A stretch of 64,000 bases of DNA, the filler included, from Globobulimina sp. (Eukaryota): the NCBI GenBank assembly GCA_003354225.1. It is 10 parts of 10 records of this genome, joined end to end, with 100 filler letters (N's around TTAATTAATTAA, not from the genome) between each part and the next. Parts side by side here need not be neighbours in the genome. Positions count along the whole stretch, not along the records: positions 51,671 to 58,014 come from PIVH01000309.1; 9 more parts are not named here. The stretch is one strand, 5' to 3'. Made by a program: the position numbers and the translations under genes. This document shows, piece by piece, positions 2,057-58,340 of the stretch. Each line of letters starts with the position of its first letter. Within the stretch, counting starts at the first letter, position 1. Below the pieces are notes generated by a model. It made no database searches. It had not been told where the DNA came from and saw only the letters and a list, made by a program, of their open reading frames with translations.

Positions 2057-3861
2057 TTAGTAATCCATATAGAATGGATATGGTGAATGGTGACGTTGGC
2101 GTATTGGCAGACGAAGCCAAGTCACAAATTTCTTATATTCATCCATGTCGCGTTGATGAAATTGTGTTTTTGATTCCATAAATGAGAAATCAGAGAAATA
2201 GGACGGTGATACTTCAGTTAAATGGAGATTATATTGGGAATGCAAGCGATTGAAAGCAGGCATATCATATCGAGAGAGTAAATCAGCAAAGTCATTAAAT
2301 TCGGATGGAATCCATTCGAAGAATATATAGATTTTATATTTGATTAACAACAAACATAATTCGTAAATAAACATCATCACTGAATAGCGACTGGACCATT
2401 TTCGCGTCATTGCATAAAAGCAAATGGAATTATCAATATATAAATGGACAGATTTACCAGTTAAGACATGTTTGTATGTCTCAACCAAAGAAAGGACACA
2501 GTGAGCCTCCTTTTGATGGATCTTCCACTGTAAATGCTGTTGTCTGAATTTATATTTAGCAAACACAGAATCAACGACAAAGCCAGCGCCCATATTGCAG
2601 GCATCTGAGGCCGCATAGATATTTATGGAGGGTTTTTGGATCAAATTCATTATAGGAACAGAGCGAAGATAAAATGCATATTTTAACCAGAATTTGAGGT
2701 CATTTATGATCGAAAGCGGGAGGATTATCCAATCAGATTTACGTATGACACCATTGCGGATATTCTGATGGATATAATACATGGAATTGTAAACCAAGGC
2801 CTTCGTATTGGGGTTCAACTGACTCCAATGCATAATTTTGCCAGTCAAGGATTCCAAGGCCCGACCAGACACAACGCGATATTGGATAACCCAAGTTATG
2901 AACTTCTTTAATTGGAGGAAAGCTTTATGTGGAATCTGCGCAGTTTGATCACGAAGGTTCCATTGGACACCGTGGACAATGGATTCCTGGCAGGAATGGA
3001 CAGATTTGCCGTGAGAAATGGTGACATTTAACTCTTTGAATAAATCATCAAAGATAGCTTCCATTAATTGGCAATCTTGTTTGGTATTGGCAGCCATGGT
3101 GAAATCATCAACATGGACACGGATAGAATTTAATAAATGGGGATATTTATCGGCTAATTTGCAATTATTGACGATCCAAATAAGCAAAGTGGCAAAATAT
3201 TGACAGTTTGCAGGAGCAGACGATACGCCATAAGGCTGCTTTCTGTCTCTAAAGCGGAGGCCAAAGAGGGAATAACCGAGGAAATTGGAATCGATCTCAG
3301 GCAAACCGATTTGCCTAAAAAAGTCAGCCAAATCACGTAAGGCAAAATATTTCTTATCATGGAGCAATTTGGCATAATCCTTCAAATTTGGGAGATCTTT
3401 CATGGCACATTTTTCTTTACGAATCCATTGGTTGATAGCGGTGGTATTTATTGTATGGAAGGAGCCATTGCGAATCACTCGGACTTTCGTATAAAACCCC
3501 AAATGATCTTTCTTGGGGACACAAAAGATCATAATTACATAATGAGGATCATGGTTAATAGGTTCAATTTGGCCGTTTTCACATTCGGCAACAATTTTAT
3601 CGACGATGGCAATTGCTTCATTTATGGAATTTGCTCTGTTATAAATATATTGAGATAAATTGGACGGATTCTCCTTTTTATTGAACGTTTTCAACCAAAG
3701 CGGGAAACCGTTTTTGATAAATTGTAACTCGACTTTCCCATTTTTCTTTGTTTTCAAATATTTTTCGAAGGCGGCAATATTTAAAGAATTCTTATATTTC
3801 GAACCTTCGCTGTGTAGGGTCTGTAACCGAGCGACTTTGGTGGCGAGTTCCGGAGATATTT
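2057..3861 (-). CDS. Reverse transcriptase-RNase H of element A (predicted exon from TAG acceptor at 3862)
   Basis: RT motifs FCVPKK, RDLADFFRQI, QPYGVSSAP, HVDDF; DIRS-type RNase H ASDAC, HQKEAH, YIDNS, WIPSEFNDFADLLSR. Confidence 0.95.
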
Positions 3862-4293
3862 CTAATACAATATAACAGAGGCAATGTACAGAAAGAGAAA
3901 CGTTTCTGATAAGTTGCGGTATACACAAAGGGAGACCGAAGTTAAAGGGACAGTGAATCTGCAAAGTTTGATTCAATTTTGAAGGAGAAACTGGAGAAAA
4001 ATTGAAATTGAAAAATTAAATAAGTTAATGCGAGCAGACTTTGGCTCAACACATAAGTTTGACCAATACATATAAATACAACATAGAAAAGTCAACACAG
4101 CACAAGAAATTGTTTGTGACTGAGAAAACTATAAAATTGGTAGTTTCGAACGATTGAATGTGATAAAAATATATAAAAAAACCCATTCCCAAATAAATTG
4201 ACAGTAATAATGGTATATAATGTGACCAAAACATAAAATATAATGTGATACATATTATGAATAAAATTAATTTGAAAGAGATTAATATTGAAT

Positions 4294-5288
4294 TTAAGAT
4301 GATTTTGAGGCCAATTCACAATTACATAATGGATGCTTTTCACCTGAATGTAATACACATTCATGTTTCTTGGGACAATCATCACCTTTTCTACATTCCC
4401 CAGTGGCGTTATAGAAAGCACATTTATCGCTTTTCCTAAAATCAAAAGACGTACCTGAGTCGCGCAATAAATGTGTGATTTTCTTCGAATTTAATATCAT
4501 CGGATTTCCTTGCCAGCGTTGGGCAAAATTCTCATGATGTGGACGATCATTCGGCGTCGGATTGGACGCTCTGTCATGATTTTTATTCCTCCGATTGTTA
4601 TATGGCTTCTTTTTATCAAATTGCTTCTTTTCTTTTGGTTTCTTAGGTTTCTCGGAAAAATGCACGTCGTCGGGCTTGAACGAGGAAAAATTGTCAGATA
4701 AGAACGAGATAAACGACATATTCGAGTTGCGACAGTTCGTATTTTGGAGCCAATTTGAGGAGAATGTGGAGTATAATGATTTGTTTTGATTGATGGCAAT
4801 TTGGACGCCTTTTTGGAACCAAATCCATAAATCTTGTGGTTGAAAGGATAAATCTTTCATTAATGGATGCAATAAATTGATTGTTTTATTTAAATCAAAG
4901 CTTTTATAATCCAAATAAACGCGAATTTCACGGTATAATAATTGCTGTGTTTCTGAATTTGGTAATAATTTATTTAAACGCGAGGATAAATCAAAAATAA
5001 AATCACGCACAAAATTGAGTGTATGAATAAGATTCCACTTTGATTTGAACAGCGAGGTTAATTCCGAGGTTGGTGATAATTTATCAATGTATTTCATTGA
5101 TTTGTTCGCATATTTACAAATCCGATATGTCAATGCAATGAAGGAAAAGTTAGGTTGAACGACGCCATTAATAAATTTAATAATTTGTATGTAACATAAT
5201 ATAATGTCAGACTGCTTGATTGATGATTGCAATTTGGCGGAATTGGACGGAGCATTTAAATTTAATATTTGTTTGAGAGTGATAGGAT
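4294..5288 (-). CDS. Gag-like zinc-finger protein of element A (predicted exon from TAG acceptor at 5289)
   Basis: C-terminal CAFYNATGECRKGDDCPKKH (CCCH) followed by CVLHSGEKHPLCNC knuckle; basic/Asn-rich linker; lies upstream of RT. Confidence 0.82.
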
Positions 5289-5608
5289 CTATTAATTGGT
5301 GGTCAAATTTGTATAAAAAATTGTGTTTCTCATTGAAAAGTTGGGTTTGCATAAAAATTGTATACAAATTGAAACGTTTGGAGAGAAATAAAAACGTACA
5401 GAAAAGGGTAGTTACAGATCACAACTCCATTTTTTCGAAGTACGAAGGAGAGCAAAAAAGACAGAAAAGACATAAATTTTCGTGGTATCAATAGAAAGAA
5501 GGGGTCAATCCAAGCAAACTAAAGAAGAAAAAGAATGACTTACAATGAGATTTCAACTCAACTGAAGAAAAAGAGAAAGTATATAATAGAGAAATGTATA
5601 CAAATTAC

Positions 5609-6366
5609 CTTCTAAATCCTGAACGATATCACGGCCAGTAATTTTGCGACCATTTTCGGTTAATTTGGAATTAATTAATTTATTGATAATGGAAACCTCG
5701 GCATCAACGACCTGATTGATTGCCAAGTCAACCATCGTCAAGGTACAATCTTGTTTTTTCTTTTTATCCACACCGGGAGCACACAATAAATATTTATCCA
5801 TAGTAATAAGGCGCTGTAAGTTGTTGGTATTGGGGTTAAATTGAAAGATGGGTTTGTTGGAATACTGCTTTCTATCCAACTCACGCCGTAATTGATGGTG
5901 TTGCTGTCGTACTTGCTCAGAAATGGAGGATCTGAACGAGGCCAAATCTTCTTTGGTGAGAGCATCCGGATTTTGCTTTGTTTCCGGAGGAGCGATAAAT
6001 TCTGGAAATCGAAAACGTGAATGAACGGCAGTGGTCGAAACAGGTTTTTCCTGCTTTTCTTCGGAACGACCGATGGTGGTGACTTTGTTGCGTTTGGTGG
6101 AGCGGATTGGCGATGGAGAACGACGACGTTTGTTTCGATTTGAATGCGGGGAGTATTTATCAACTAAAATTTGAGGGATTTCTCTGTTTTTCAGGATTGT
6201 GGGGAATTTACTTAAATTGACAACATTCACTTTTTTGTCAATGACACCTCGTTTTAATAATCGATGCTGAATAGTCGGTGAAATTTGGGCAACAAATTGG
6301 TGAGCCTGCGCTGAATTTGATACTTTTGCAATGGACTCAATACTTTTAACGATGGGAGAATTGGTT
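5609..6366 (-). CDS. Leader ORF/exon of element A (open to the contig end; ends at GAAG|GT donor at 5608)
   Basis: Frame is open from 6365. The block RLITMDKYLLCAPGVDKK...IVQDLE resembles KLVTLQSHAISALTVDRS...LVTKVE in element B, and the similarity stops at the GT. Confidence 0.72.
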
Positions 6367-32930: not shown

Positions 32931-35900
32931 CTATTTAGAATACCTCAAACGTCCCGTCTTTGTCACAAAGATGACTATCGATTGCAAGATTAATTTACGG
33001 TGCTTCCATCGTATATCAGTCGGCGGAAATAATAACGTTTTTAATTCAATTTCCCATTGAGCGATTTTATAATATTCAGAGATTGTATTCATTAAAATAT
33101 TTCGCGGGGCACTATATTGCGGGCAAAATAATAAAAAGTGATCAACATCTTCTACATCACCACAAAATTGGCACCTTCCACTACAATTTGTCGTACAGCA
33201 TTGCAATTTACACCGAATATATTCAATATGCCCTTTGTTACGGCGATTTTGACGATCATAGAATGCTCGGTGTTGTCTGATATGATTATACAAATTTAGA
33301 GCAATATGACCCGAGCGTAGTTGTAGCAGAATCATCGATTGATATTGAATTAGATGCAATTCCTGTTTTGCATTGAAATGCCGTAATATGTGCCATCGCC
33401 ATTTGTATATATTATGAGAAATCAAATGGGAATCTTTCAATGTATGAATATCATTAAATTGGAGTGTTTTAGTTATCGTTTTTCGTATCAGTTTCTTGGC
33501 AGTTTTCTCAGAAACGGGTAAAGAGCGATATTTATTTTTATTATATTTATTATTATAACAATTTCGGGCTGCTTTCTTTGCAAAAAGATCTGCGATGCGA
33601 ATTCCGTGATTGGTGTCGCGTTTACATTTTTGTAAACGTATAGTTATTTTATATTTTGTATACAAATAATGAATATCGTGGTGAATGCGTTTAATATATT
33701 TTATCAAAACATAATCGTGCGTTGTTTGCAATTTTGCCACCCATAATAACGCATTTATATTGTCTGAGATTATGTGAATGAATCGATAATTTACAAGAAA
33801 GTCATCTGGCATCTTTATGATTTGCTGGATTATAGTCATAATTCCTATCAATTCCACCACGTTAATGTCAGTTGCAAAGCCAATTGATAATAGATCCTGA
33901 TGTATGGCAACAACATCATATTGTAAACAAACATGTATTTGTGAATGAATGTCAATGTCTGTATCAACACAGACATTCTGTATGTGAATATTTTCATTAT
34001 TTTGCAAATCATCCTGATATTTATTACCGTGCAAATGATTATGTATTTTATGGGTTTCTATTAACATACCAATTCCTGCACAATTTTTAAAAATAGATCC
34101 ATCGGTAAAGGCAAATAATGCATTATGTGTATTATTATTTAATTGCGTTTCTGTATACAAATTATTTATATATTCAATATATTGGCATTTGGTAATAAAG
34201 GATGGAACAAATTTCATTTTACGACCATTCTCATTCATATTAAATCTCCAGTTATAATTTACAAAATGCATTATTTTATATTGTTTTGCAACTAAAAATA
34301 TCCGAAATAATGGGTTTCTGCGGTCGTACGTCTTCATATATTGCAATTTTGCCTTTTGTGTCTTTATATGTACAGATGATAACAAATGATTATTCCAAAT
34401 AGGCATCCAATGATTGGCAATTATGTTAAACAGAATATTACGATCGTGTATATATAACAAACCAATCCAATTTTTAATCAATTTAATATCAATATAATTG
34501 TCATAATGTACGAATGGAGAGAGTATGATCAATATATCCAAAGGTATGGTATGTAACGCATTAAATAATAGCCTTATAATGCGATAATACATTTGTTTTA
34601 AAGATTTACTGTCTTTTTTAGCAGATGAACACGCAAATAATATCACTGGGTATTCGATTTTGGACAGTATCACAGACGAAAGATAATGGAATAATTTCTT
34701 TGTACGAAATTGCTGAGTATAAAAGCGAATGTTTTTTATGTCCTTAAAATCCAAATATATGCGTTGTACGATATGATTTATGTGGGTCCGTGGCGATAAA
34801 TTGTACGTTAAATAATATCCAACGTACTTTACATATGCGGCAGGTTTTGTTTTCACGACATCATTAATAGTTATTTTTGGTGTAGGTACATAATGATTTC
34901 TTTTCATGTGATTTGTATAGAAAATAATATATTTTGTTTTATTTTCAGATAGCTGCATCCCATTAAAATATAGCCAATTTACAATATTATTAATTGCATA
35001 TTGCAAATTTGTCTCAATATCATATGTAAATATCGTTTTTAGCACCGTCCAAATTACTAAGTCATCAACGTATATATATAATTTTATAGGCAAATATTGT
35101 GGAATTGCATAGTACAAAGGGTCTAAATACAACATATTTAGAAATGGACTCAATGGCCGACCCTGTGCTAATCCGATAAGCTGTAATAACCATTTTGAGC
35201 GTGTGCCATTTACAATAACTGCGCACCAACAATTAATAAATAAATCGTATATAACTCGTACATATTTTAAGGAGAAACCAAAATATCGATGCAATCGTTG
35301 TATAATAATATCATAACACACCGAGGGAAAATCTTGAGATATATCTGAGAAGATAGCATATGTTGGAATGTGTTTATTCCATCCAATATGAATATCATTT
35401 ATCATCAATGCCACGATATCCCGCGTGGATTTTCCCTTCATATTAGTAGTATTATTTGGATGTATCGAGTCACAAACAACTACAAATTCAATGCCTTTAT
35501 GTAATAGGCACAATTCATATATCTTTTTAATACATCCATTAAGAGAGATCTCTCGATAATTATTTATAAGATGAGGATCACGTTTTGGTTTAGGTATAGC
35601 TGTAATATATGTAATTTTGTGTATGCGTGGAAAGTATCCCATGTTATAGAATAAATTTAAATATGTTACCATGAAATCGATAATAAATGGATCAAGAAAC
35701 AAAAGTAATTGTACATGTATGCCGATACCGTGATTGCATTTTTTGTTTACAATTTTGAATATATAGCGAACCAAATATGCATTTATCGGACTATTCAAAG
35801 TATTTTTTGCATTATGATAATGTGCATCGTGTTGGATTAAACGTGGATTTCTCGGTTGATTTGCATATAAAATATCAGTGGAAATATTATCCATTATTGC

Positions 35901-36308
35901 CGTACATGGATAAATATCATCTTTCAATGGAATTGTTTTAAATCTAAGTCTATCCATACTGTTATAATTAGTATTTTGTATTTTGCGATGACAGAATTTG
36001 TTTGCAAATAGATTGGCTTTAATATGATTATCATGGACAATCGAATCGGTATCGTTCTCATCATTATGGATAATATATGGTATACAGTGTTTGCGTGAAC
36101 TACTTTTGCCAATTTTGCGTAGATAACGCATTGATTTATATATATTACGATGTCCTGCGATTGTTAAGTTTATATTTTGTTGCAGTTTTTTCTTTTTTGC
36201 TTTTGTACATAAACGTTTTAATGCATTTTTATGTTGTTTATATAGGGCAAATTTCGCATTTTTTGTATTATCAACACAAGACAACCAGTCACGTTTTAAC
36301 TCTCTCAA
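32931..36308 (-). CDS. LINE ORF2: RT-RNase H-zinc knuckle portion
   Basis: 1125-codon ORF with the motifs listed above; no ATG of its own, out of frame with the endonuclease fragment. Confidence 0.88.
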   Translation of the reverse strand: MRELKRDWLSCVDNTKNAKFALYKQHKNALKRLCTKAKKKKLQQNINLTIAGHRNIYKSMRYLRKIGKSSSRKHCIPYIIHNDENDTDSIVHDNHIKANLFANKFCHRKIQNTNYNSMDRLRFKTIPLKDDIYPCTAIMDNISTDILYANQPRNPRLIQHDAHYHNAKNTLNSPINAYLVRYIFKIVNKKCNHGIGIHVQLLLFLDPFIIDFMVTYLNLFYNMGYFPRIHKITYITAIPKPKRDPHLINNYREISLNGCIKKIYELCLLHKGIEFVVVCDSIHPNNTTNMKGKSTRDIVALMINDIHIGWNKHIPTYAIFSDISQDFPSVCYDIIIQRLHRYFGFSLKYVRVIYDLFINCWCAVIVNGTRSKWLLQLIGLAQGRPLSPFLNMLYLDPLYYAIPQYLPIKLYIYVDDLVIWTVLKTIFTYDIETNLQYAINNIVNWLYFNGMQLSENKTKYIIFYTNHMKRNHYVPTPKITINDVVKTKPAAYVKYVGYYLTYNLSPRTHINHIVQRIYLDFKDIKNIRFYTQQFRTKKLFHYLSSVILSKIEYPVILFACSSAKKDSKSLKQMYYRIIRLLFNALHTIPLDILIILSPFVHYDNYIDIKLIKNWIGLLYIHDRNILFNIIANHWMPIWNNHLLSSVHIKTQKAKLQYMKTYDRRNPLFRIFLVAKQYKIMHFVNYNWRFNMNENGRKMKFVPSFITKCQYIEYINNLYTETQLNNNTHNALFAFTDGSIFKNCAGIGMLIETHKIHNHLHGNKYQDDLQNNENIHIQNVCVDTDIDIHSQIHVCLQYDVVAIHQDLLSIGFATDINVVELIGIMTIIQQIIKMPDDFLVNYRFIHIISDNINALLWVAKLQTTHDYVLIKYIKRIHHDIHYLYTKYKITIRLQKCKRDTNHGIRIADLFAKKAARNCYNNKYNKNKYRSLPVSEKTAKKLIRKTITKTLQFNDIHTLKDSHLISHNIYKWRWHILRHFNAKQELHLIQYQSMILLQLRSGHIALNLYNHIRQHRAFYDRQNRRNKGHIEYIRCKLQCCTTNCSGRCQFCGDVEDVDHFLLFCPQYSAPRNILMNTISEYYKIAQWEIELKTLLFPPTDIRWKHRKLILQSIVIFVTKTGRLRYSK

Positions 36309-36782
36309 TTTATTGCTCGTCTCAATGCTTTGGATAAGAGATCAATATCAATAAAGGTACCAAGGATTTGATGTTGTTGCTGTAAATCAATATGAATGAT
36401 ATCAATATACTCTTCGTAGCCATTTTTTATGTATACAACATTTTTGAGGCATGGATCAAACATTTGAATGCCATTTTTTGTATGAAAATATCCATCGATA
36501 TCTGGCGGAGTTAAAGGTGATGCATAACGTACAGAAACCTCTTGCAATGCAACAATAACTGGCTCTAACTCGTCAACAACATCCTGTAATGTATCCAATT
36601 TAGATTTATTATATCCATTTTTGCCATTATCGATTAACAAACCATTAATATTGAAGGATAATATGGGCAGAGAAGTATCATAATAATCTCTGTTGATATA
36701 TCGCAAAATACTATGACTATCAATTATATCTGGATGCGAATGCCGACGTTTCCATTGTTTATCGCTATTCTGTGTCAATGTC
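36305..36782 (-). pseudogene. Truncated AP-endonuclease domain of LINE ORF2
   Basis: Has the NxNGL and LQE motifs but lacks the later GDxN and SDH motifs before the frame change near 36345. Confidence 0.72.
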
Positions 36783-38557: not shown

Positions 38558-38775
38558 TGTATGGTATGAAGATAATTCATCTTTTTCATCGTTTTTATCG
38601 TTTTCAGGGTCCGAATCATTATCATTTACATCGTTGTGCGACGCGTCAGCATTATCATTTGTATCATTATCTGGTNNNNNNNNNNNNNNNNNNNNNNNNN
38701 NNNNNNNNNNNNNNNNNNNTTAATTAATTAANNNNNNNNNNNNNNNNNNNNNNNNNNNNNNNNNNNNNNNNNNNN

Positions 38776-41411
38776 GCACGGTTAATTTGTTCATTAATTA
38801 TTTCATTATCAAATGGACATTGTTTATTAATCACAGCAGATGTAACATATTGAATGAATCTAGTTAGTGTGGGACAATCTATATGTTGCCAATGTTTAAC
38901 ATATTGTTTCAGCAGATTTTGCTGCATAACATTGAGAGTAATCAATAGTAAAATAAAAATAAATGTAGTATTTTCAAAGCGATGTGTATGTTTAATATTT
39001 TTTTGTTTGATAAATTGCATTCCTGTCGGTCTGTTACCGATTAATCTATGTGATGATAATATATGTGTTGGAGTGGTGATAGATTTATTGCCAGCATTAA
39101 TATTGAATTTATTGAAAAACTGTTTTCTCGAATTTGTTATCGGACATACGTTTTCGTAATGTGAATAGGCTGCATTTCTGGCAATAACAATAGGTTCAGC
39201 ATTGAACTGGGATGAATTTGCTGCTTTTGGACCCACCACTAAAGTCGGAGGAGATTGTACATAACTGTTGATAATAAGAATTGGGCGATCAAATAAGTCT
39301 GAAATAATATATGGTAACAAATCAAATAATTTGCTGTTCCAGTATCCAGAATGTCTATATTTGAAATTAGTATAATCAGAAGTATAATGACGAAGCGAGC
39401 CACCTTTAAAATCACCAATATACATAGCAATATATTGTTTTGCTGCTGGATTTGTTGGGTCAATCAAAATGTGTAATTGTTGGCGCACAATACTTCCATC
39501 TCGAGCTAATAATTGTGAATGTGCACGCGATGCAGATATTAGTAAGGAATCACCATTTTTATCAACACGATCATTGGATATTTTCATCCCAATGGAGAGG
39601 AGACTATCATTCAAATATGCAGTGTGCGAATCAGTTTCATATTTGGATATTTCAATACGAGGAAAGAATACAGGACTCGCGAAACTAATATGGGAATGAA
39701 TTCTTTTCTGTTTTAATATACAATTTGTAAAATAAATATTTTTAGAAGCTTGAATGAGTGGATCTGCATATGTTCTCAAATTGGATTGGATAAAATTGGT
39801 ATTGAGTTTTGGTGTTTTTAATGAAAACTGTAAATAAGAAATATCCCAGATCGATGGAATAGGCCTCAAAAGAGTTGGATTAATTTTATGTGTTTTCATC
39901 AAATTTTTAAATTGATTGTATGTTGGAATATGTTTCTTATTCGCACCGTAATTTAATATCCATGGAATGAATAAAGCTTTAGCGAGAATCGGAGATATAT
40001 CACTGATATGTGAAAATGTATATTTTATATGCTTATGACATCCTTCGTTGCCGCTGGTTGTTTCATACGGAGGTATATTGGATAAACAACCATTTTCAAT
40101 ATGCTTTTTAATCAAATTTTTAATCTCGGTATCAAAAGTAGTTTGTTTTCCAGAATCCGCACTAAGTAACACTGGGCCCTCTCGAATTAAAAACCCTTTC
40201 TCAGCATGTTTTTTCGTCGACCATGTTTTGCGCCAAGTGATTAAATTTGATTTGATTGTTCCAGGATCTGCAGTATTATGTTCATGACGAGCACCATTGT
40301 AATAAAATATATTACTGAGATCGTTTACAGCTGGTGAATAATACGGATGATTTTTGCGTAAACAAGATGCTATTCGCTTTATGGCATGCCAAAGATCTAA
40401 CTTTATCAAAGCAAATGGATGAACAGAGGACCAAAATACTTTGTCTGTGCAGCATCTATCTGATATAACCATTTTAACTGATTTTATTGATTCGATCGCT
40501 TCATGCATATCACGAACATTTTCCATATGGGTGGTATTGCAAAATCTGAATAATAATGGTGTCTTACTATTCATTATCATATAACAGCCGGAAGCAATAT
40601 TAACTTGTTTGCCATCGATGCTAAGTTTTATTTTGGATGCAATTTTGAACGTGTGATCGACCGTTAGTATTTCGCAATGATCCATAGTATTAAAGCAATA
40701 GTTCCAATATGGCGTTTGATTTGTAAATTCATCCGTATACAAATTGGTAAAATAATTGTTGTGAGATTGATATTGTGGAATAAATGGTGGAAATAGTTTT
40801 ATTTGATTTACCGGTGTATTATGAAACATTTGCCAATCAATATACAATGTTTCCTGCATATAATATTGTTCTTTATGTGATTTAATAAGCATATCTGATA
40901 AAGTATTAATACCCACTCCGCGAATAACTGAATTTTGTATCTTAGATAAAATATCGGTATGTATACTATTGCGTCCTGTTAAAATAAATGGAAACTTATT
41001 TCTGATTAATGATGGTAACGAATTCATGTATTGGACACTTGTGGATGTAACCGCTGCATGTCGTGAAGGGCAAGCATATGAAGCGCTAATCAATAGCAGA
41101 TTGCCATGTTCATCTATAACGGAACGAGGAGCATTTGTTTTGTATGTTGAAAAGGATTTGGTTGTGAATGTTTGAGAACATTGATTGCATGTTGGATATG
41201 ATTGAGAATATTGTTTAATGGGATCCCAAATAAATAAATGAGGTAATGTAAATTGTCTAAAATCTGGAGATGTAATAACTTGTGGACCAAATATTTGTTC
41301 TAATTGTCCGATATCCGGTGTAATAATGGCAGCTTTATATGGATTTGCTTTATGTAAACATATAACGTGGCTGATCCATAAATCATCGTATTTGTTTGTG
41401 TTAGCGTGCAT
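38776..41411 (-). CDS. Zisupton-like DDE transposase with a C-terminal OTU-like domain; 3' end cut by the contig end
   Basis: LFIWDP..CNQC..PRSVID..YAC..H..FPFILT N-domain; LTVDHTFK, ISDRCCTD, IKLDLWHAIKRI, TSGNEGCHKHI core; DKNGDSLL...DLLPYIISDLFDRPILII...SHYE OTU-like fold. Confidence 0.72.
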
Positions 41412-41442
41412 CCAACAAAATGCCAACAAAATCCCAATATTT

Positions 41443-41862
41443 GTGAATATAATATTGATGTAACTGATTATGACAATATTTGTGATTATGACAATATAAT
41501 ATTGATGTAACTGATTATGATAATATTGATGTAACAATTTATGCCAACAATTGATGTAGCAATTATTATGTAAGAATTATGTTGGAATTATGCAGAAATT
41601 ATGTTGGAATTATGCAGAAATTATGTTATCTCATTATAACTTGTCTTTTTTTTTTGTGTTGTAACTTGACTACTAACTTGACTAATTCACATATAGCATA
41701 TATATAATTTACATTTATTAAGTCAAACTTTTAGTAGTCAAGTAGTCAAGTAGTCAAGTTTGATCGTGACTTGAATATTAACTTTTAGTAGTCAAGTAGT
41801 CAAGTAGTCAAGTAGTCAACTTATTATTAACAATCATGAGTAGTCAAGTAGTCAAGTAGTCA
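41443..41862. repeat. Repeat-rich block: ATATTGATGTAACTGATTATGA x2-3, AATTATGTTGGAATTATGCAGA x2, and arrays of TAGTCAAG in both orientations
   Basis: CTTGACTA copies at 41664-41683; TAGTCAAG arrays at about 41735-41759, 41789-41819 and 41841-41862. Confidence 0.85.
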
Positions 41863-45486: not shown

Positions 45487-47091
45487 ATGTCAGCACGATT
45501 CATTATCTTTATTATATCCATGGCCATGTTCTTGTTGCGATGCATTGCCGCAAAGCCAAACTATTGTCTTCCGGCAGACATTTGCTGGCCTTCTCCGACA
45601 GAGACCAATGCATTATCATCCTCGTTAGATGGCCAATTAGTCACTGCATTATCAAATCCGAGCTTATACGCATCATATGTAGACATGACAAGAGATAAAT
45701 TATTCTTAGCATATCCCGCATTCGTTGTGGTTTGTTTATCAGCACAAGATATTCAAAGAGCTGTGACATTTGCCTCATGGCATAATATTCAAATATCAAT
45801 ATGTTCCACAGGACATTCGTACAGTGGCCGCAATACAGCAAATTACAGTGTTCAGATTAATTTATCCAAAATGGCAAAATATAAAGTTGCTGCTGATGCA
45901 AGTACAATAACAGTGGAAACAGGAATGCATTGGGCTGAGATTTATGAAATTGTAGATTCTGTAAATCGTATCGTTGTTGGTGGCAGTGATCCTGATGTTG
46001 GCCCGGCTGGTTTTTCTTTGGGTGGTGGCCATTCGCCAATCAGCCCACACTACGGATTATCCTCTGATTTTACCACCGGATATTATCTGGTCGATGCACA
46101 TTCGAATATAGTTGATGTGTATAATACATCTGGCAAAAATCAAACGATTGATGACTTATTTTGGTCTTTAAAAGGTACAGTACAGTGTGTATTTTTTTAA
46201 TTTGTTTTATATGCACAGCAAACAGGTGGCGGCGGATCAACATTTGGAGTGGTTATAAATATAACATTTGCGTTGCATATTCCTCAACAACCACTCTCTG
46301 CGAATAAGTTTACGCACGTGACTTGTTTGTATAATTTTTATCAACATCCGTTGAGTAAACAAGGTTTTATGGCAGATTATATATTGCAAAACTATTTTGA
46401 TTTGGTGCGAACAAATGAATTGGATGCTAATTGGGGTGGATATCTCCTTTCGTATTTTGATGATGAATTTGTACTTTCTGTCTTATTTTATGGCAACGTA
46501 AGTTATGCAAAGCAAAACGGGCAACTTGTCACTATGTTAAGTTATCCGTATAATAATTCGGTGAATACCATATGCAGTATGGACGTATATGATACTTTTT
46601 GGGGCTATGAGTCTACAGTTCCGCCTATGGCACCATCTGTGGTGTGGGTATTTAATAGCTTGGTAGCAAAGAATAACTTAACCAATGAGTATGTGCAGGA
46701 TTTGACCGCGTTTTTAAACTCTTCCATTAATTCTACAGAGTTTGGCTGTGGAATAACTTTAATATTACAAGGCGGCAAAGTAAACGAAAGAGATGACGAT
46801 TTTACAGCGGTTACGCCTGCTTTCAGACATAATTGGTTTGAAGCATCGGGTGGCTGTGGATGGAGCAATCAAACATACGCTCAAATGGCAATTGACAATG
46901 CGAATAAATATGAAACAAAGTTAAGAGAATATGGATTAGGAATATATTCAAACGAGGAAGCTCCAGAATGTTTTGATGCTGATTGGAAACAACAATTTTG
47001 GGGCAATCATTACGAGAAATTATTGAATGTTAAAAAGAAATGGGATCCAAACCAAGTCTTTTGGTGTAACCATTGTGTTGGCAGTGATTAG
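45487..47091 (+). CDS. Secreted FAD-linked oxidase (berberine-bridge-enzyme-like); intron 46175-46225
   Basis: Signal peptide, CWP, TGHSYSGR, GFSLGGGHSP, DLFWSLK|GGGGSTFGVV, YSNE, FWGNHYEKLLNVKKKWDPNQVFWCNHCVG. Confidence 0.92.
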
Positions 47092-51213: not shown

Positions 51214-52058
51214 TTCTGCTTTGAATGATATCTAAAACGTACATTTTTATGGGTAATGTTGGAATATATGGTATATGGAGAATTTACATAACAATTGGTC
51301 CATTAGGCCGAACAGAAATGATTTCCAAGTCGTAAACATTTGGAAATTGTTCACAACTGTCCATCATCATCATCGCGGCTGTCCAGAATAGACCAAAAGA
51401 ATTCGAATTTGGGAGTGAAGTGGTTTTGTGTACATAGTACGTGTTTTTGAATGTGAACCTTCCAAAGAAGATTCATTTGCATAAATTGAAATAAATTGCA
51501 TTCGCGAGGCCAATCCACGGTAACCTTTAGTAAAAGGCGAAAGATTAGTTCGTTTTGAATTAACCTCTGCNNNNNNNNNNNNNNNNNNNNNNNNNNNNNN
51601 NNNNNNNNNNNNNNTTAATTAATTAANNNNNNNNNNNNNNNNNNNNNNNNNNNNNNNNNNNNNNNNNNNNAAAATAAAGTTTGTTGAAGAAAACTCGTAA
51701 GTAAAATGCAAGTAAGGATACAACACAATTTTCAACACAAATCATAACACTGCGTTTTATTTATACTACGTAGAAATAAAACTCCGTATTATAATTTAGT
51801 TTAGAAAAAGGACAAGGAATAAGAAAATAATTAATTTAAAATAATAATGGGTCATACACGACATTGTAAACAATCGGGAAAATATAGAATAATAAAAAAG
51901 TAATATAATAGAAAGAAATAGAATTTATTTTAATAAATACTATTTCATAAACCCCGATTGCCCGCGTGTAACGTGAAAAAATTTTAATGTTGCCTAGAAT
52001 GTTAAAAAATTTTTAGAGGCAAACCTATTTCACGAATAAAAGGAAACTAGCATTAAAT

Positions 52059-53323
52059 TTATTTTTTGTTTTTGATTTGTTGGTAACAAAATTTACGGTC
52101 TTCACATTTTGCCCAAGGATCAAAAACAACGCTTGTTTGTAAGAATTGTTTATTTTTTGTATTTAAATCATTATTGGGACCATGAATCATATGATGGACG
52201 AAACGACTAAGACAAATAGCATCTGGTCTAATATATCTCATGCTGATGTCTGGTAATTTTGCATCGCTCCATCCAACATATTTTAAAATAAGTCCGTGTG
52301 CAATGCCTACTTGGGACGCTCTTGTTGTTCCCCCAATACGTGAACTATAGGCAGCATATCTATGAGGTTCAACAATATAATTATTATTTGCTGCAACCAC
52401 TTCTTTGATTATTTTAGATAAATGTGTTGTTCTTACATTTTTTCCTGAAGTCCACACAAAAACATTATTGTTAGTAGACAGGATAAGGTTCTGTTGTCTT
52501 CTTGTTTTTGGTAAAGTTGATACCAAAGTTTGTCTACGTTGTAAATAAACTTTTAAGAGACGCAAAGGATTTAATAATTTGCAAGGACAGGAATGGTTGG
52601 AATTTAACGCATTGGAACAATATGAATGTCCAACATATAGAAGTTTGGAATCATTCAAGGATTTCATGGATTTGTGGGATACCACTTGAATTTGAGCAAA
52701 ATGTGTGATTGGATTGGATGGATTTGGTTTTATAAAGGATAGATGTTTAAATTTTAATCCTTGTTTTGTGATGGAATAATGGGATGATAATAATTCTGAT
52801 GGTCTAGACATGGTAAAAAAGTATAATTGTATTATTAAAACACGCAGGAGATCATCTAAAGGAATTGTAAAATAATGATTAATGACACACTTTAATTTCA
52901 ATGTATAACGGATTATGTGTTTAATTTTTAAAGGAAGTCTGGAATCAGAGGGCTTATCGAAACGTTTTATTGCTGCGGATTTGAAGGTTGTATATTCTGA
53001 ATCGGTGTTAAAGGTTGGATCAATTGCAGCTGCTTTGTGAAGCCAAAGAAGCATAGCTTGCGATTGTCGAACGCAATTTGTATTATTTGCTTGTTGTATT
53101 CTATCTGCAATCCAAAATAAAGCCAGGGATGGATTAGTTGGTAGTTTGAAAGGATTCTCTTTCAAAGTAACGCAATAAAATACCCAATTTCTTAATTGTG
53201 AAATGTATTGTATTTTAGTGCCGATACAATTTTTTAAATTATTAGTTTCTACAATGAAATTTGCTGTGTCTGGTTTCTTTTTTGAGAGCGAGTGTGTTTT
53301 AAAGAAACGTTTTTTGTACCAAG
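52059..53323 (-). CDS. Tyrosine recombinase of element B (predicted exon from TAG acceptor at 53324)
   Basis: MSRPSELL, AYSSRIGGTT, VGW, SMRY, FDPW; the frame opens just upstream of the acceptor and has no ATG until well inside the conserved region. Confidence 0.92.
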
Positions 53324-53401
53324 CTATATAAAATTAAACAAAGTTAGTCTTTTACAATGGAAACTTTGTAAAGAGAATATAAAGAATAAATAAAGGCATA
53401 G

Positions 53402-55269
53402 TTATAAAGTAAAGTTGTTTGCATAATTTGGATAAGGAGTATTTGCTCTAATTTTTAAAGGTAATTGCAAGTAATCTATGAATTTATTATATTCAATTTC
53501 GTCATAATTATGATCATGGATCTGATCATTTGATATTGAAATTTGGTTATTTAAGAATTTAAAATTTGTATAATAGATTGTTTTTGTTTTGGTATTGGAT
53601 ACATTGAGATTAAAATCATTGATTATGCTCCAAAATTTGTTTAAATCATTTCTTGATAATGCATCGGATAAACCATTGGTTGTGGAAGGAATCCAATCGA
53701 TGTAAGCAATGAATTTATATTCGAGCATCAAAAAGCATAATTCATAAATGAATAACATTAGATTGAAGGAGGAGGACCATTTATTTTTAACTGCGTAGAA
53801 ACATGATTCGTTATCAACAAATAAATGGATTTTTTTTCCTGTCAAGTAATGACGGAAAGTAAAGAGGGCTGAAAGTATAACATGGGCTTCTTTTTGGTTA
53901 ATGTGCCAATTTTTGGTATGGTTATCATTAAAATAATAAGAGGACCAATACCCAGCAATGATATAACCGCCCTGTGATTGTGATGCATCTGTTGATGCTG
54001 AAATATCTGTATTATAATTCATTATTATTTCGGACATTGGTATATTTAAAATTTGATCAGCAAAATAATACCAATATCGTAAATCATTTATGATGGAAAG
54101 AGGTAAAATAAAATCATGGCTTTTTGGAAATATACCGGATCGAATATTTTGATAAATAAATTGTAACAAATTCCAACATAATGCTTTTGTTGGTTGTTTT
54201 AATTGGGCCCAATGCATAATGGTTCCACAGAGGGATTCAAGGGCAGCACCTGAAATGACTCTATATTTCATGGTATAATGGATTAATTGTTTGATATTTT
54301 TATATTTGATTGGAGGAATACCAATGGTTTTGTTTTTTAAATCAAATAATATGCCATAAAGAACTGATTGTTGGCAAGTTTTTATAAAACCAGTTTCTTT
54401 TAAGGAAACCTGGACATTTAATTCTTTCATTAACGAATCAAATCTCCGTTCCATTTCAATACAGTCTGTTTCTTTTATGGCTCCTAATACAAAATCATCG
54501 ATATGTACTAAGGTTTTATTTCGCCAATTATCTTCAAATACTTTGTTGTCTAAAATCCAAATTAAAACTTGTGCAAAATACTGGCAATTTGCCGGGGCGG
54601 AGGATATACCGTATGGTTGTTTTCTATCTCTCCATAGTAAACCAAAAAGAGAGTAACAAATATAGTTAGAATCTTCTTCGCAAAGACCAATTTGGCGAAA
54701 GAAGTCAGATAAATCGCGAATTGCAAAAAAATTACAATCAATCAAAGTTTTAATATATTGTTTTAAATTTGGAAGGGATGGAATTTTGCATTTAATTGGA
54801 CGAATCCATTCATTTATGGAAGATGTAGATTTTGTTTTAAAGGAACCGTTTCTGATTATACGGAATTTGGTATATCTTCCTTGTCCATCTTTTTTAGGCA
54901 CACAAAATATCATAACTATATACTCAGGATTGCCGAAAAATGGTTCAATTTGTCCATCTTCAGCTTCCTTAATCATTTTATCTAAAATTGCCAATGCTTC
55001 TTCAGGCGTATTGGCAATATTTGATATTTTTGTGCAAAGATTATTGGGTTTAGTTAATGGTTGTTTCTTTGCTTTAAAATGTGTTTTTAACCATAATGGG
55101 AAACCAACCGTTATCCATTTGATATCGGATTTATATTTAGGTTTGCCTTGTAAATATTTTTCAAAGGCTGGGAGATTAAGTTGATTTACAAATTTCGATG
55201 GTTGGTTATGGAGATCCGTGAATTTTTTGAGTCTTGGTTTTAGCTCTTTTGCAAAGTTAGTGTCATATT
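53402..55269 (-). CDS. Reverse transcriptase-RNase H of element B (predicted exon from CAG acceptor at 55270)
   Basis: The frame extends upstream of the ORF call through LNLPAFEKYL...GFPLWLKT (shared with element A); RDLSDFFRQI, QPYGISSAP, HIDDF, STDAS, NQKEAH, FVDNE, SDALSR. Confidence 0.95.
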
Positions 55270-55473
55270 CTGTATATTTAACAAAAACCTCTTTTAGTTC
55301 ACAATGTAGGATCTTTTAATGTCGTCGAGAGGGACGGTGTGTTGTAGAGGGTTGGTATTAGACATAATTGCTACGAAATAGTCAAAAAAGTTCATTGGTA
55401 AATGAAATTGGCAAATTACTATTAAATTATCCCACACACACAGGTAAAGAGTAAAAATATATTAATATATAAA

Positions 55474-56618
55474 TTAAAAGGAGAATTCGCTGAATTTCTT
55501 AATATATGATTTCTGAATGTTTGGTTTCGATTTTGCAGTCTCACAATTTTTGAACGTATGATTCTGATCCGGATGGAATGCACAGATATGTTTAAATTGA
55601 TCATTATTAGTTCCACATTGGTTTCGTGGATTGGAGCATGATCCGAGAAAGAAGCGCCACATACAACAATCTGAAGGACATGGCACACCATATTCACTCA
55701 TACATTCATGGCAACATCGACGGAAATTTCTTGTTTTTTCTTTCGACGCATAATAACTGTTTTGGCTCTGATTATTGTTTTGATTTCGATTATTTTGATT
55801 GCGATTATTGGGAAATCGATTATTGCTGTTGTTTGGATATCGGTTGTTTGGATTATTATTATTCTGAGTGTTATTGTTGTTATTTCTGTTATTATTGTCA
55901 TTGGGATATCGATTATTGTTATTATTCGAATAATTGTTGTGATTGTTGCGATTATTGCGATTTCTATTTGGTTTATTACCGTGATAATTGTTCGGATATT
56001 CATTGGAATGGACAGGTTTTTGATTATCAATAAAAATGTTGAATTTTTTCCCTTTTTCAAATTCATCCATTTTGAAATCAGTGAATGTACTCAAAAGGAA
56101 TTGGATTACATTATTTCGCGCGGCAACATTATTAAATTGGTCAGTATAATAATTATTATCTATCAAGAGACTAAATGGAGCATTGTGATCTAAATAATAT
56201 TCAAAAATCTCAATGGTGGCTGCCCAGAAATTCACAACATTAAAATATGGTTTTTTACAGTATGGAGTTATTTTCTCTTTGAATAAGAAAATGCTGGCTT
56301 TACAAATTTGAATCCAATCGACCAAGATATTGTTAATGACGGGGTTTGGTTTTGCGTAATTATTTAGCGCTGACAATACGAAATCCAATGTATGTGTCCA
56401 TGCATCGAGAATGAAGAATAATGCATGTTTGGATTTAAACGATGAATATATTTCTTTTGTGGTGGAACTAATATCGGACATGTTATAATTCTCAGATAAA
56501 TGTTTAAGTGTTGAATGCAACAATTTAGGAATGCTAAAATCTTCTCTTGTTGCAAATCCCGTGAAAAATTGAATTACATCATCTCTTGCTTGTCGTTTTT
56601 GTTTGATTTGTGTGGGGA
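55474..56618 (-). CDS. Gag-like zinc-finger protein of element B (predicted exon from CAG acceptor at 56619)
   Basis: Asn/Arg-rich linker, then CMWRFFLGSCSNPRNQC...KH and CAFHPDQNHTFKNC, matching the element A fingers. Confidence 0.82.
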
Positions 56619-57080
56619 CTGTAAATTGTGTTATTTAAATTGAATTATATTGTAAACAATTTCGCAGGGTTTACTTTGGTAAAAGCAACTTAGTTGACTT
56701 AGGTAAAAGTGTTTTTATTCGCAGCTACAGGTACTTTGGTAAAAGTAGTTAGTAGGAATAAAAGTGTTTTCATAGATAATGTATACAAAAAGGCAGAATA
56801 AACATAATCGGAAAGATGAAAAACGGAATGTACACAATATAAAGCACCGTACAATGGAGATTAATCCAAGAATGAGAAAGGCGGTATCATTCTATGCGTG
56901 TACAGAGACCCAGCTGCAGTACAGTGACATATTGTGAATAGCCAACCAAAAACACCTCAAACAGTAAGCCAAAGGCAGGTAAGTTATAAAGCAAAGATAG
57001 GAAAATAGAGAGTTTTCAATTTAATTTTGTGAGCACAATAATTAAACGAGAACAATAAAAGTTATATTATAAATATAAAC

Positions 57081-58014
57081 CTTCAACTTTTGTAACTAAT
57101 TCATCATTCGAGGCGGTATTAGCTCGCTTATTTCCATTCATCTTTCTTTTCATGATATCCATCATAATTTCGTTATGCGATTGGTTTTCTTCGTTGGTGA
57201 CAGCAGCAGATAACAATAATACTGCTTCTTTGTCTTGCGATCGATCGACAGTGAGGGCTGAAATTGCATGCGATTGCAATGTAACTAATTTCGTTTTTGG
57301 TGTATCATGTCTTGAATAAGAATATCTATTTCTTGATTTGTTTAAACTATGCGATAATGTATCAATTTTCGCATTGAGATTGTTGGATAATTCTTTAAAT
57401 TGCTTATTTAACTGTGTATTATTATTGTTATTTGATGAACGAACATGTTTTTGTTCATCAACAACATCGCGGATATATGGATTTGTAGCGAAGTCAAATG
57501 GTGATTTTGGTACTGGTGATGGTCGAGGCGTGCTAAATACGTGAGATCGTGACTCCTTTTGTCGTTTTGAGCCGTGCGGATTGTCACTATGAAGGCGCGT
57601 ACGAGGCGACATTTTGTCGGCTTTGCGTTTCTTGACAAATTTGATTTGATTATAAATCACTCGTTTCTTAAAAAATGGATAGTTCCATGCTTTGACTTGA
57701 TTGCCTTTTGAATCTAAAAATCGATTTTTTTGTAATGCCAAGAATCGATCCAAGATCTTTGGCAAAAACCATCGCCACCAATACTTCATTCGTTTGCTTT
57801 GTACATAATGTCCATAAAAACATAAATCAAAAATAAAATCGAATACAGATCGATGATCTTTTGATTGCTGAATATCAATAAATCGGTCATGGAAACACAT
57901 GGAATAAACCATATTTAAAGTAATACCGGTCATTATAATATGATCTATGAATGCAACGACTGCAATACGTCGTTCTTCATTATAACGGCGCATAATTTCA
58001 TTGATTTCATGCCC
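57081..58014 (-). CDS. Leader ORF/exon of element B (open to the contig end; ends at GAAG|GT donor at 57080)
   Basis: Frame is open from 58014; the C-terminal block resembles the element A leader up to the donor. Confidence 0.72.
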
Positions 58015-58340
58015 NNNNNNNNNNNNNNNNNNNNNNNNNNNNNNNNNNNNNNNNNNNNTTAATTAATTAANNNNNNNNNNNNNNNNNNNNNNNNNNNNNN
58101 NNNNNNNNNNNNNNTTCTCATCTGCTTCGGCTTGTGCCTGATCTGCGGCGGATGCTTCCCCCTCAACGGGTAGTAAGCAACCCATTTGCCAGAATAGTAT
58201 TGTTTGGACTCGCTTTAATAGGCGAACGGCGGCATGATCAGGAGCGAGGTTTAATTTTTAGCATACAAAAACGTTTTTATTTCACTTTTTATATACACTG
58301 CATAACAATTTATAGACACATAGATAATATTAGTATGATT

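Follow-up and report, generated by a model that had tools for sequence, protein, structure and literature searches.

Gene content and classification of element B

Element B occupies positions 51671–58014 (contig PIVH01000309.1) of the 64,000-nt stretch of DNA analysed here (the window), taken from the Globobulimina sp. assembly GCA_003354225.1, with its genes on the minus strand (Table 1). It contains four non-overlapping ORFs, namely, ORF0, a zinc-finger gag-like ORF, an RT/RNase H ORF and an ORF for a Cre-like tyrosine recombinase (YR). The spacers between ORFs are 68–462 nt long and contain stop codons. Element A, a diverged member found in the same window, follows the same plan. In addition to elements A and B, the comparison set included 19 related metagenome loci with GC contents of ~30 to 62%. 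An RT tree, built from members of this family only, contains eight lineages on long branches. In element B, element A and L001, all ORFs lying wholly inside the contig are open over 360–650 codons, and the ORF0 part is open up to the contig limit. Some other copies show damage: the RT is frameshifted in L003 and L016, and in L005 a frameshift lies close to the end of ORF0.

Table 1. Features of element B and the corresponding sites of element A (window coordinates; splice sites are predicted, with a slash marking the exon boundary)
Feature	Position	Strand	Basis and remarks
ORF0, 3' part (exon 1)	57081–58014	-	ORF listing; 5' side cut by contig end
Splice donor GT, phase 1, GTTGAAG/gtttat	57079–57080	-	direct reading and homologous site in relatives
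Spacer 1, shortest predicted intron, 462 nt	56619–57080	-	stops throughout in the ORF0/gag frame
Conserved non-coding island within spacer 1	56845–56934	-	~80% identity to L001
Gag-like ORF, from acceptor TTTACAG/ (AG 56619–56620)	55477–56618	-	stop 55474–55476
RT/RNase H ORF, from acceptor TATACAG/ (AG 55270–55271)	53405–55269	-	Pfam; stop 53402–53404
Tyrosine recombinase ORF, from acceptor TATATAG/ (AG 53324–53325)	52062–53323	-	structural model; stop 52059–52061
3' non-coding region with palindrome	51671–52058	-	homology to L001 5' start
Element A	1–6366	-	exon 1 end 5609 (GAAG/gtaatt); acceptor G at 5289 (gag), 3862 (RT) and 1631 (YR)

The RT ORF of element B matches the Pfam families RVT_1 (E 3.6e-08, 33.8 bits, cut-off 29.6) and RT_RNaseH (E 9.6e-07, 29.4 bits, cut-off 24.8). 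In element A, RVT_1 is likewise above the cut-off (E 3.6e-08, 33.8 bits), and RT_RNaseH scores 24.5 bits, slightly below 24.8. The gag-like ORF of element B has a Cys/His-rich C-terminus, and the gag-like homologues of the A group match zf-CCCH. The recombinase ORF of element B has no sequence match in Pfam or PDB. The best match of its AlphaFold2 model, built from a 9-sequence alignment (pLDDT 69.2), is Cre recombinase (E 8.5e-06), with 29 chains at E <= 0.001 and weaker matches to Xer, Tn1549 integrase and Flp. R174, K218, W352 and Y364 are invariant in the nine sequences, and the second arginine position is occupied by R in 6/9 and by K in 3/9. A Pfam profile search found no integrase or protease families, and no methyltransferase family matched the RT ORFs at E <= 0.1. 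The element B family thus belongs to the DIRS order, in which RT/RNase H is combined with a tyrosine recombinase that replaces the DDE integrase. In the Ngaro arrangement, the genes are ordered gag, RT/RH, YR, and there is no methyltransferase domain; the gene order found here and the absence of a methyltransferase match agree with it. A DIRS1-like assignment was considered as well and rejected because of the stop-holding spacers between the ORFs and the lack of a methyltransferase match.

The 3' region of element B contains an 80-nt imperfect palindrome (~51729–51808), and the final ~95 nt share homology with the 5' start of L001. The latter locus carries the same 119 nt at both ends (unit length, 8014 nt), with a palindrome similar to that of element B, of 26-nt arms, at the 3'/5' junction. 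On contigs that end at these points, the termini are compatible with a circular or tandem arrangement, with split repeats (A1...A2) and with short inverted ends.

Splice-site motifs at the ORF boundaries

The upstream ORF, described in the initial annotation as a leader, is in fact not short: it is the 3' part of a long orphan ORF of ~780 aa, which in element B is cut off by the contig limit at 58014. In the full-length relative L001, ORF0 is 784 aa long and starts with ATG; the element B part shares 46–47% identity with its residues 446–784. By direct reading, the proposed phase-1 donor at 57080 was confirmed to the base: the exon, AAAGTTGAAG, ends at 57081, which is codon position 1 of the stop-to-stop frame 57067–58062, and is followed by GTTTAT. 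Exon 1 ends with the conserved peptide ...NDELVTKVE and then a G that opens the junction codon, and if the intron is retained, ORF0 terminates 3 codons past the donor (57067–57069). Six sequences hold the 3' end of ORF0 (elements A and B, L001, L005, L010 and L016), and in all of them a phase-1 GT directly follows the conserved peptide D-[LIVC]-[VL]-x-x-[LV]-[EQ]. The exon ends in AAG/GT in five and in AAA/GT in one, and a stop lies 0–23 codons past the donor. A regex scan of 21 sequences found the peptide motif with GT a single time per locus in the five matchable loci and nowhere else. The donors depart from GTAAGT in 4/6 elements (GTTTAT twice, GTAATT and GTTAAT). No conserved phase-1 GT is present at the ends of the gag and RT ORFs, and in L001 the final 40 codons of both lack any phase-1 GT, which favours a single donor used with alternative acceptors over a series of introns.

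The three phase-1 acceptors placed at 56619, 55270 and 53324 also stood to the base, since the nucleotide after each is codon position 2 of the ORFs 55474–56634, 53402–55315 and 52059–53333, respectively. Across the family, a phase-1 AG is found where homology starts at 37/37 ORF starts (gag 8, RT 15, YR 14) from eight RT lineages, the sites having been picked via homology and by eye rather than blind. Position -3 holds C at 21 sites, T at 14 and A at 2, and never G; both AAG sites belong to frameshift-carrying copies. The extended pattern is T-A-Y-A-Y-A-G, with a deficit of G between -23 and -3. The acceptors have weak polypyrimidine tracts, and 9 of the 37 are accompanied by a branch-like motif versus a background of 13%. 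In the recombinase alignment, all 12 sequences have a phase-1 AG at one column, compared with 0.066 per codon overall. The residue at this column is variable (A, D, G or E), which places the conservation at the nucleotide level. The YR acceptor lies a constant 15 residues ahead of a conserved K-[DN], also in relatives of 54–62% GC. In two copies, the acceptor AG overlaps an in-frame TAA, so that no coding start can lie farther upstream there. The check laid down beforehand, whether homology runs on beyond the sites, found none upstream of the acceptors and none past the donor, except for a few bases common to the close pair of element B and L001.

Start codons are scarce at these ORFs. In element B, the residues between the upstream stop and the acceptor are ITQFT, KILHCELKEVFVKYT and FYI for gag, RT and YR, respectively, with no methionine; of the distances of about 5, 14 and 3 codons given initially, the outer two hold and the middle one measures 15. 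The absence of ATG in this interval holds for element B and fails for the gag ORF of element A, which has an in-frame ATG 21 codons upstream of the acceptor. The first in-frame ATG of element B comes 46, 98 and 90 codons past the gag, RT and YR acceptors, and in 11/14 RT ORFs it lies at least 89 codons past the acceptor, inside conserved sequence. The claim that the ORFs can be reached only by splicing is too broad for a few relatives in which an ATG follows 1–2 codons past the acceptor (RT of L011/L012; YR of element A, L006 and L010). At the latter ORFs and at the element A gag, independent initiation is possible. Database proteins of these elements have arbitrary internal or alternative starts.

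All 17 donor–acceptor joins tested in six elements are in frame and open. The relative frames of the four ORFs are (0,0,2,1) in element B versus (0,2,0,2) in its close relative L001, and the splice phase is unchanged, which excludes read-through or a fixed frameshift. The kept phase at two donors and six acceptors of elements A and B was verified by direct reading, and selection on these sites, as proposed initially, is supported across relatives by the 6/6 donors, 37/37 acceptors and 17/17 joins.

Candidate splicing programme and its alternatives

One 5' and several 3' splice sites are thus present at the sequence level, and we consider it likely that, in this DIRS-order element, the single donor at the end of ORF0 is spliced alternatively to the three phase-1 acceptors, yielding in-frame ORF0 fusions. 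The full-length transcript would serve as genomic RNA and as the mRNA of ORF0, presumably the sole ORF with its own ATG. The single 5' splice site, a few codons ahead of the ORF0 stop, would be joined to one of the 3' splice sites at the coding starts of the gag-like, RT/RNase H and recombinase proteins. Since the donor and the acceptors are all in phase 1, each spliced mRNA would encode one downstream protein as an in-frame extension of ORF0. Splicing would then do for these elements what frameshifting or read-through does for Gag-Pol elsewhere, every element protein would gain a common N-terminal module, and spacer 1 would be confined to unspliced RNA. Fusion to the entire ORF0, and the role of ORF0 itself, are inferred. 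A ~780-aa protein fused to every enzyme, with no protease detected, is unusual.

The use of the donor and acceptors in splicing is predicted from the motifs described above. Contigs from four runs align colinearly with the DNA, and no element-carrying run is recorded as RNA. No ORF0 fusion was found among 66 RT homologues, nor did a protein search, a weak test, return longer fusion proteins. The sole well-supported host intron in the window is 51 nt long, and the predicted element introns are 0.2–4 kb.

An unlikely alternative holds that the acceptors are real and that AUG plus one base comes from another 5' exon, whether a trans-spliced leader or a short exon from the 5' UTR or the ORF0 start, in which case the GT ending ORF0 would have no part in these joins or would share it with another donor. 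Acceptor conservation is silent on which donor is used, complete 5' ends come from L001 and L016 only, so that the comparison leaves room for an upstream donor, and the unusual fusion to a whole 780-aa protein would be avoided. However, the phase-1 GT behind a conserved peptide in 6/6 elements, in an AAG/GT or AAA/GT context with a stop soon after, would be left unexplained, and hosts of ~30% to 62% GC would all need trans-splicing of a leader whose 3' end is AUG and one further base. The first ~48 codons of L001 ORF0 contain no phase-1 GT.

Less probable still is expression without any splicing, by non-AUG internal initiation, reinitiation or shunting on full-length or subgenomic RNA, with YAG/G acting as a translational or transcriptional signal. 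The ATG at +1 or +2 after the motif in a minority of ORFs would suit such a mechanism, T-A-Y-A-Y-A-G could be a different signal, and a spliced form is missing from the contigs of the four runs, the 66 homologues and the (weak) search for longer proteins. Against this, most ORFs are ATG-free for tens to >100 codons, and the RT-to-YR spacer, at ~70–80 nt and poorly conserved, is too small for known IRESs. The invariant AG, with a pyrimidine at -3 and no upstream G, is the signature of a 3' splice site, and neither the conserved GT at the ORF0 end nor its phase match to the acceptors would be accounted for. The frameshifts in L003, L016 and L005 could indicate dead copies, in which spacers and missing starts are damage and the GT/AG pattern is a coincidence picked by eye, but we find this very hard to reconcile with whole ORFs of 360–650 open codons in elements A and B and L001, with a plan repeated across eight RT lineages, and with a phase-1 AG in 12/12 sequences at one column when chance predicts ~0.07 per codon.

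Relation to known expression strategies

From a single RNA that doubles as the genome, retroelements have to produce several proteins at defined ratios. Known solutions include frameshifting, read-through and overlapping ORFs, with splicing serving accessory or envelope genes in retroviruses and pararetroviruses. In retroviruses, unspliced RNA is both genome and gag mRNA, Pol is made by frameshifting or read-through, and packaging signals are located just downstream of the donor. The element B family resembles them in having a single donor near the 5' part, several acceptors before the downstream genes and a sequence just 3' of the donor that would be confined to unspliced RNA. In contrast to retroviruses, the donor here ends a long coding ORF, every join is in frame and would produce fusions, RT itself would need splicing, and a tyrosine recombinase is encoded instead of an integrase. 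The island in spacer 1 has a core of ~70 nt that recurs in L003 and shows depth peaks in runs X1 and X3. A role of the island in packaging or export of the genomic RNA is no more than a speculation. It is part of a wider scenario that we regard as rather doubtful, namely, a widespread undescribed lineage of marine protists' tyrosine-recombinase elements in which a retrovirus-like splicing programme replaces Gag-Pol recoding and the nucleocapsid-like, RT/RNase H and recombinase proteins enter one particle or complex as fusions to the fast-evolving ORF0.

In rice tungro bacilliform virus (RTBV), splicing of the pregenomic RNA fuses a short ORF of the leader to the distal ORF IV for translation of P4, as described in the available excerpt of PMC5902531. 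There, too, an upstream ORF is joined to a distal one to enable translation, but RTBV is a plant pararetrovirus rather than a retrotransposon, and in that excerpt a short uORF and one distal ORF are involved, versus ORF0 of ~780 aa and three ORFs in the element B family. Host splicing alongside retained unspliced genomic RNA also sets product ratios in Cer1 of C. elegans, Ty1/Copia of Arabidopsis and CaMV (PMC10309623, PMC5580714 and PMC4498817, in the portions accessible). Unlike in the element B family, splicing in these systems, as far as the same portions go, gives gag-only or accessory mRNAs, and the enzymatic ORFs have start codons and need no in-frame upstream fusion.

With Ngaro-like/DIRS elements, the family shares RT and RNase H, a tyrosine recombinase in place of an integrase, the absence of a protease, a zinc-finger gag-like ORF, the gene order and perhaps a head-to-tail terminal repeat structure. 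According to the excerpted text of PMC6681497, Ngaro-like/DIRS elements have three long ORFs, often extensively overlapping, and DIRS1-like elements have overlapping ORFs with a methyltransferase domain in some. Compared with that description, the element B family differs in its four non-overlapping ORFs and stop-filled spacers; it also adds the orphan ORF0, and its ORFs 2–4 mostly have no start codon and are preceded by conserved acceptors. The literature on tyrosine-recombinase retrotransposons, as searched, contained no description of a splicing-fusion strategy.

In the element B family, host splicing and in-frame fusion to ORF0 appear to be required to make even the polymerase and the recombinase. 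If true, this would be a new expression strategy within the DIRS order and a case of convergence with retroviral RNA processing, and it would account for gene callers splitting these elements into ATG-less fragments. It would also make these elements a natural model for how a genomic RNA with introns avoids being spliced in protists whose own introns are tiny.

Protein content and relatives of the elements

Element B (contig 51671–58014, minus strand) carries, in order, ORF0, a gag-like ORF, a reverse transcriptase (RT)/RNase H ORF and a tyrosine recombinase (YR) ORF. The 637-aa product of the third ORF matches the Pfam domains RVT_1 and RT_RNaseH. The second ORF has a Cys/His-rich end and its A-type copies match zf-CCCH, which makes the designation 'gag-like' reasonable. 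The last ORF has no match in Pfam or among PDB sequences, either alone or as a nine-sequence profile. The best match of its AlphaFold2 model (pLDDT 69) is Cre recombinase (29 chains at E ≤ 0.001), with other tyrosine recombinases scoring more weakly, and the alignment contains Arg, Lys, Trp and Tyr in the expected catalytic order, the second Arg being replaced by Lys in 3/9 sequences. By its content, the element is placed in the DIRS order. Its gene order and the lack of a methyltransferase domain are reminiscent of Ngaro-like elements. In contrast to the three long, often overlapping ORFs described for tyrosine-recombinase retrotransposons in the part of PMC6681497 covered, the four ORFs found here are separated and include the extra ORF0.

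What the initial annotation described as a leader does end at the proposed donor, but it is the 3′ end of the long ORF0, as is evident from L001, a full-length metagenomic relative of element B (RT 76% identical). ORF0 of L001 comprises 784 codons from stop to stop, with an ATG at position 214, preceded by some 210 nt of 5′ UTR. Judged by its divergence, ORF0 is fast-evolving: identity is 46% between element B and L001, versus 76% for RT, and 28% between element A (positions 1–6366 of the window, minus strand) and the related locus L016. No search made returned ORF0 relatives beyond this retrotransposon family. Pfam yielded only coiled-coil-like matches, all sub-threshold, a word-indexed search gave no match and ESM Atlas no usable one, and the three matches among 1.84 billion representatives were two fragments of other copies and one unrelated repeat protein. 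The AlphaFold2 model of ORF0 (pLDDT 32) was unusable. When the ORF0 profiles of A-type and B-type copies were compared, only the C-terminal parts matched, weakly and in collinear order (E 0.027).

Public metagenome and assembly data contain 66 RT homologues, none of them named, and a scan of JGI metagenome contigs recovered 19 related loci; no relatives were found in prokaryote genomes or viral contigs. The RT tree of 20 rows, from which L012 was omitted as a near-duplicate of L011, comprises eight lineages separated by long branches. Contig GC content is 54–62% in one lineage versus about 31–36% for the elements of the window. Some copies are damaged, with frameshifts inside the RT of L003 (1552–3496) and L016 (4359–6201) and near the ORF0 end of L005 (about 1950–1980).

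Putative splice sites and their conservation

The initial annotation proposed that elements A and B keep one donor and three phase-1 acceptors. When the minus strand of 51671–58014 was read again, all of its coordinates proved correct, and checking against stop-to-stop ORFs gave phase 1 for the donor and all three acceptors of element B. In-frame stops precede the gag, RT and YR acceptors by 5, 15 and 3 codons, the middle distance having been put at about 14, and none of the three intervals contains a Met. The first in-frame ATGs follow 46, 98 and 90 codons downstream of the respective acceptors. Related loci now provide comparative evidence that backs the initial interpretation, namely that these sites are under selection.

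A phase-1 AG is present at the point where homology begins in 37/37 ORF starts (8 gag, 15 RT and 14 recombinase), counting every such ORF with its start inside the contig and not counting L012 separately. That homology starts at the acceptors, as the initial annotation expected, was borne out: the sequence upstream is unalignable and stops are soon reached. At −3, C is found 21 times among the 37 acceptors, T 14 times, A twice and G never; the sequence from −7 to −3 is T-A-Y-A-Y, and few G residues occur between −23 and −3. The two AAG acceptors (L003 recombinase and L005 gag) overlap an in-frame TAA, and both copies are also frameshifted. The acceptors have weak polypyrimidine tracts and weak branch-like motifs. 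Acceptors were chosen by homology and by eye, and phase 1 is also where YAG falls most often in these AT-rich ORFs, so that for RT alone a match within some 12 codons would be unsurprising. The weight is carried by the exact positional conservation of the putative acceptors. In the YR alignment, a single column has a phase-1 AG in 12/12 sequences, whereas the background is 0.066 per codon and the runner-up column reaches 9/11. The encoded residue is variable (A, D, G or E), indicating that it is the nucleotide pair that is conserved. This acceptor lies a constant 15 residues ahead of a conserved Lys-Asp/Asn, also in the GC-rich relatives, where it reads CACACAG/. The RT acceptor keeps a constant distance to the first conserved motif inside each of three subgroups.

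The 3′ end of ORF0 is included in six sequences only (elements A and B, L001, L005, L010 and L016), and in all six a phase-1 GT stands right behind the conserved peptide D-[LIVC]-[VL]-x-x-[LV]-[EQ]. The donor contexts are GAAG/gtttat (element B, L001), GAAG/gtaatt (element A), GAAA/gttaat (L016), CAAG/gtaagt (L005) and CAAG/gtacgt (L010), and a stop codon follows 0–23 codons past the donor. A regular-expression search of all 21 sequences in three forward frames had a single hit for the peptide motif followed by GT in each of five loci and none elsewhere; the L010 donor was found by reading, because its second motif position is Cys. The motif of L005 is in a frame shifted relative to the main ORF0, and this copy is thus frameshifted. 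Just past the donor, L005 and L010 have a stretch of ~80 nt in common (73% identity), with extra 5′-splice-site-like strings (GTGAGTC, GTAAAT/GTAAGT) behind the stop codon, which may be decoy or enhancer sites.

Coordinates of putative splice sites and other features (elements A and B and host features in window positions, L-numbered loci in their own)
Feature	Sequence	Position	Strand	Remarks
Donor	Element B	57081	−	Exon 1 ends …AAAGTTGAAG, then GTTTAT
gag acceptor	Element B	56619	−	TTTACAG; direct reading
RT acceptor	Element B	55270	−	TATACAG; direct reading
YR acceptor	Element B	53324	−	TATATAG; direct reading
Donor	Element A	5609/5608	−	Sequence reading
gag acceptor	Element A	5289	−	Sequence reading
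RT acceptor	Element A	3862	−	Sequence reading
YR acceptor	Element A	1631	−	Sequence reading
Spacer-1 island	Element B	56845–56934	−	Core of about 70 nt
Spacer-1 island	L001	2655–2745
Spacer-1 island	L003	1–85
Terminal palindrome	Element B	about 51729–51808	−	80 nt
Junction palindrome	L001	7990–8044		26-nt arms
Terminal repeat	L001	1–119 and 8015–8133		Same 119 nt
Common stretch	L005	2091–2170		Just past donor
Common stretch	L010	about 1260–1345		Just past donor
U5 snRNA gene	Host	51456–51573	−	Rfam RF00020, 80.4 bits
Intron	Host	46175–46225	+	51 nt, phase 1, AAAG/gtacag...aaacag/GT
Mobile-element-like ORF	Window	32931–36341	−	1136 aa, RVT_1 domain
Mobile-element-like ORF	Window	38724–41576	−	950 aa, DUF6729

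Non-coding regions and host sequence

No other non-coding part of B-type elements is as well conserved as an island in spacer 1, the gap between ORF0 and gag (about 80% identity between element B and L001). The island has two small hairpins without covariation in three sequences, coincides with depth peaks in runs from two studies, and lies inside the sole segment absent from all three predicted spliced RNAs. Rfam searches of L001, L016 and L005 returned nothing but a chance miRNA-like match. The same 119 nt occur at both ends of L001, giving a unit of 8014 nt, and a palindrome spans its 3′/5′ junction. A similar palindrome occurs in element B, whose 3′ end continues into sequence homologous to the 5′ start of L001. 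These features point to a circular or tandem form or, alternatively, to terminal repeats that are split or inverted.

The window consists of ten contigs in descending order of length (6366 to 5886 nt) joined by N44-TTAATTAATTAA-N44 linkers, and genes flanking a linker are thus not genomic neighbours. The remaining contigs carry eukaryotic genes of ordinary kinds, with reading frames open in the standard genetic code, including those for citrate synthase, kinesin and a Cdc6/ORC-type ATPase, as well as two mobile-element-like ORFs; the end of the contig adjoining element B carries a gene for U5 spliceosomal snRNA. An automatic consensus scan for host introns was too noisy, and the sole reliable example is backed by a conserved protein motif, since its removal restores a Gly-rich FAD-binding-type motif. 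From this example, host introns seem to be very short, with loose donor sequences. The introns predicted in element B (462, 1811 and 3757 nt) are far longer.

Proposed expression of the downstream ORFs

In the simplest reading, a single 5′ splice site at the end of ORF0 would be joined to three alternative 3′ splice sites, and each downstream gene would be translated from a spliced RNA in which it is fused in frame to the large orphan ORF0. Each of the 17 donor–acceptor joins possible in six elements keeps the frame, which then stays open for at least 180 codons. Furthermore, in 11/14 RT ORFs the first 89 or more codons past the acceptor contain no in-frame ATG, and this stretch is nonetheless conserved. 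The ORF frames are 0, 0, 2, 1 in element B versus 0, 2, 0, 2 in L001, while splice phase is invariant, so that neither a fixed frameshift nor read-through can link the ORFs; stop-codon reassignment or read-through is likewise rejected, because reading by the standard code yields long host ORFs. Serial introns yielding one polyprotein are unlikely and were also discarded, because a phase-1 GT is not conserved at the ends of gag and RT: in L001 the last 40 codons of both ORFs lack one, as do 6/13 RT ends.

There are two rival explanations. The acceptors could receive a spliced leader or a different 5′ exon, which we regard as unlikely, or the downstream ORFs could be initiated internally at non-AUG codons, which appears quite improbable; neither accounts for a GT that is conserved where ORF0 ends and matches the acceptors in phase. 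The claim that the ORFs are reachable only by splicing does not extend to a few relatives with an ATG one or two codons past the acceptor; there, and at an ATG upstream of the gag acceptor in element A, independent initiation may occur. A search for longer RT relatives, a weak test, returned none, no fused ORF0-X protein came to light, and the ORF0 C-terminal motif precedes the RT start in 0/66 RT homologues. Contig pieces with parts of the element from four runs, none recorded as RNA, are colinear with the DNA, with three non-splice-like joints. On the comparative evidence, the donor and the three acceptors are probably used as proposed.

Retroviruses, which splice a single donor to several acceptors, are among the closest functional analogues of the predicted arrangement. 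So is rice tungro bacilliform virus, in which, according to the part of PMC5902531 covered, splicing fuses a leader ORF to the distal ORF IV. In the full-text literature covered, no account was found of conserved splicing as a natural feature of tyrosine-recombinase retrotransposons; a prior mention elsewhere, such as in the first papers on DIRS and Ngaro, is possible. The splicing in the covered part of PMC7192593 concerns an artificial marker intron only. Taken from their sequences, the elements described here appear to represent a family of tyrosine-recombinase retrotransposons in which the downstream genes would be expressed as in-frame fusions to ORF0.
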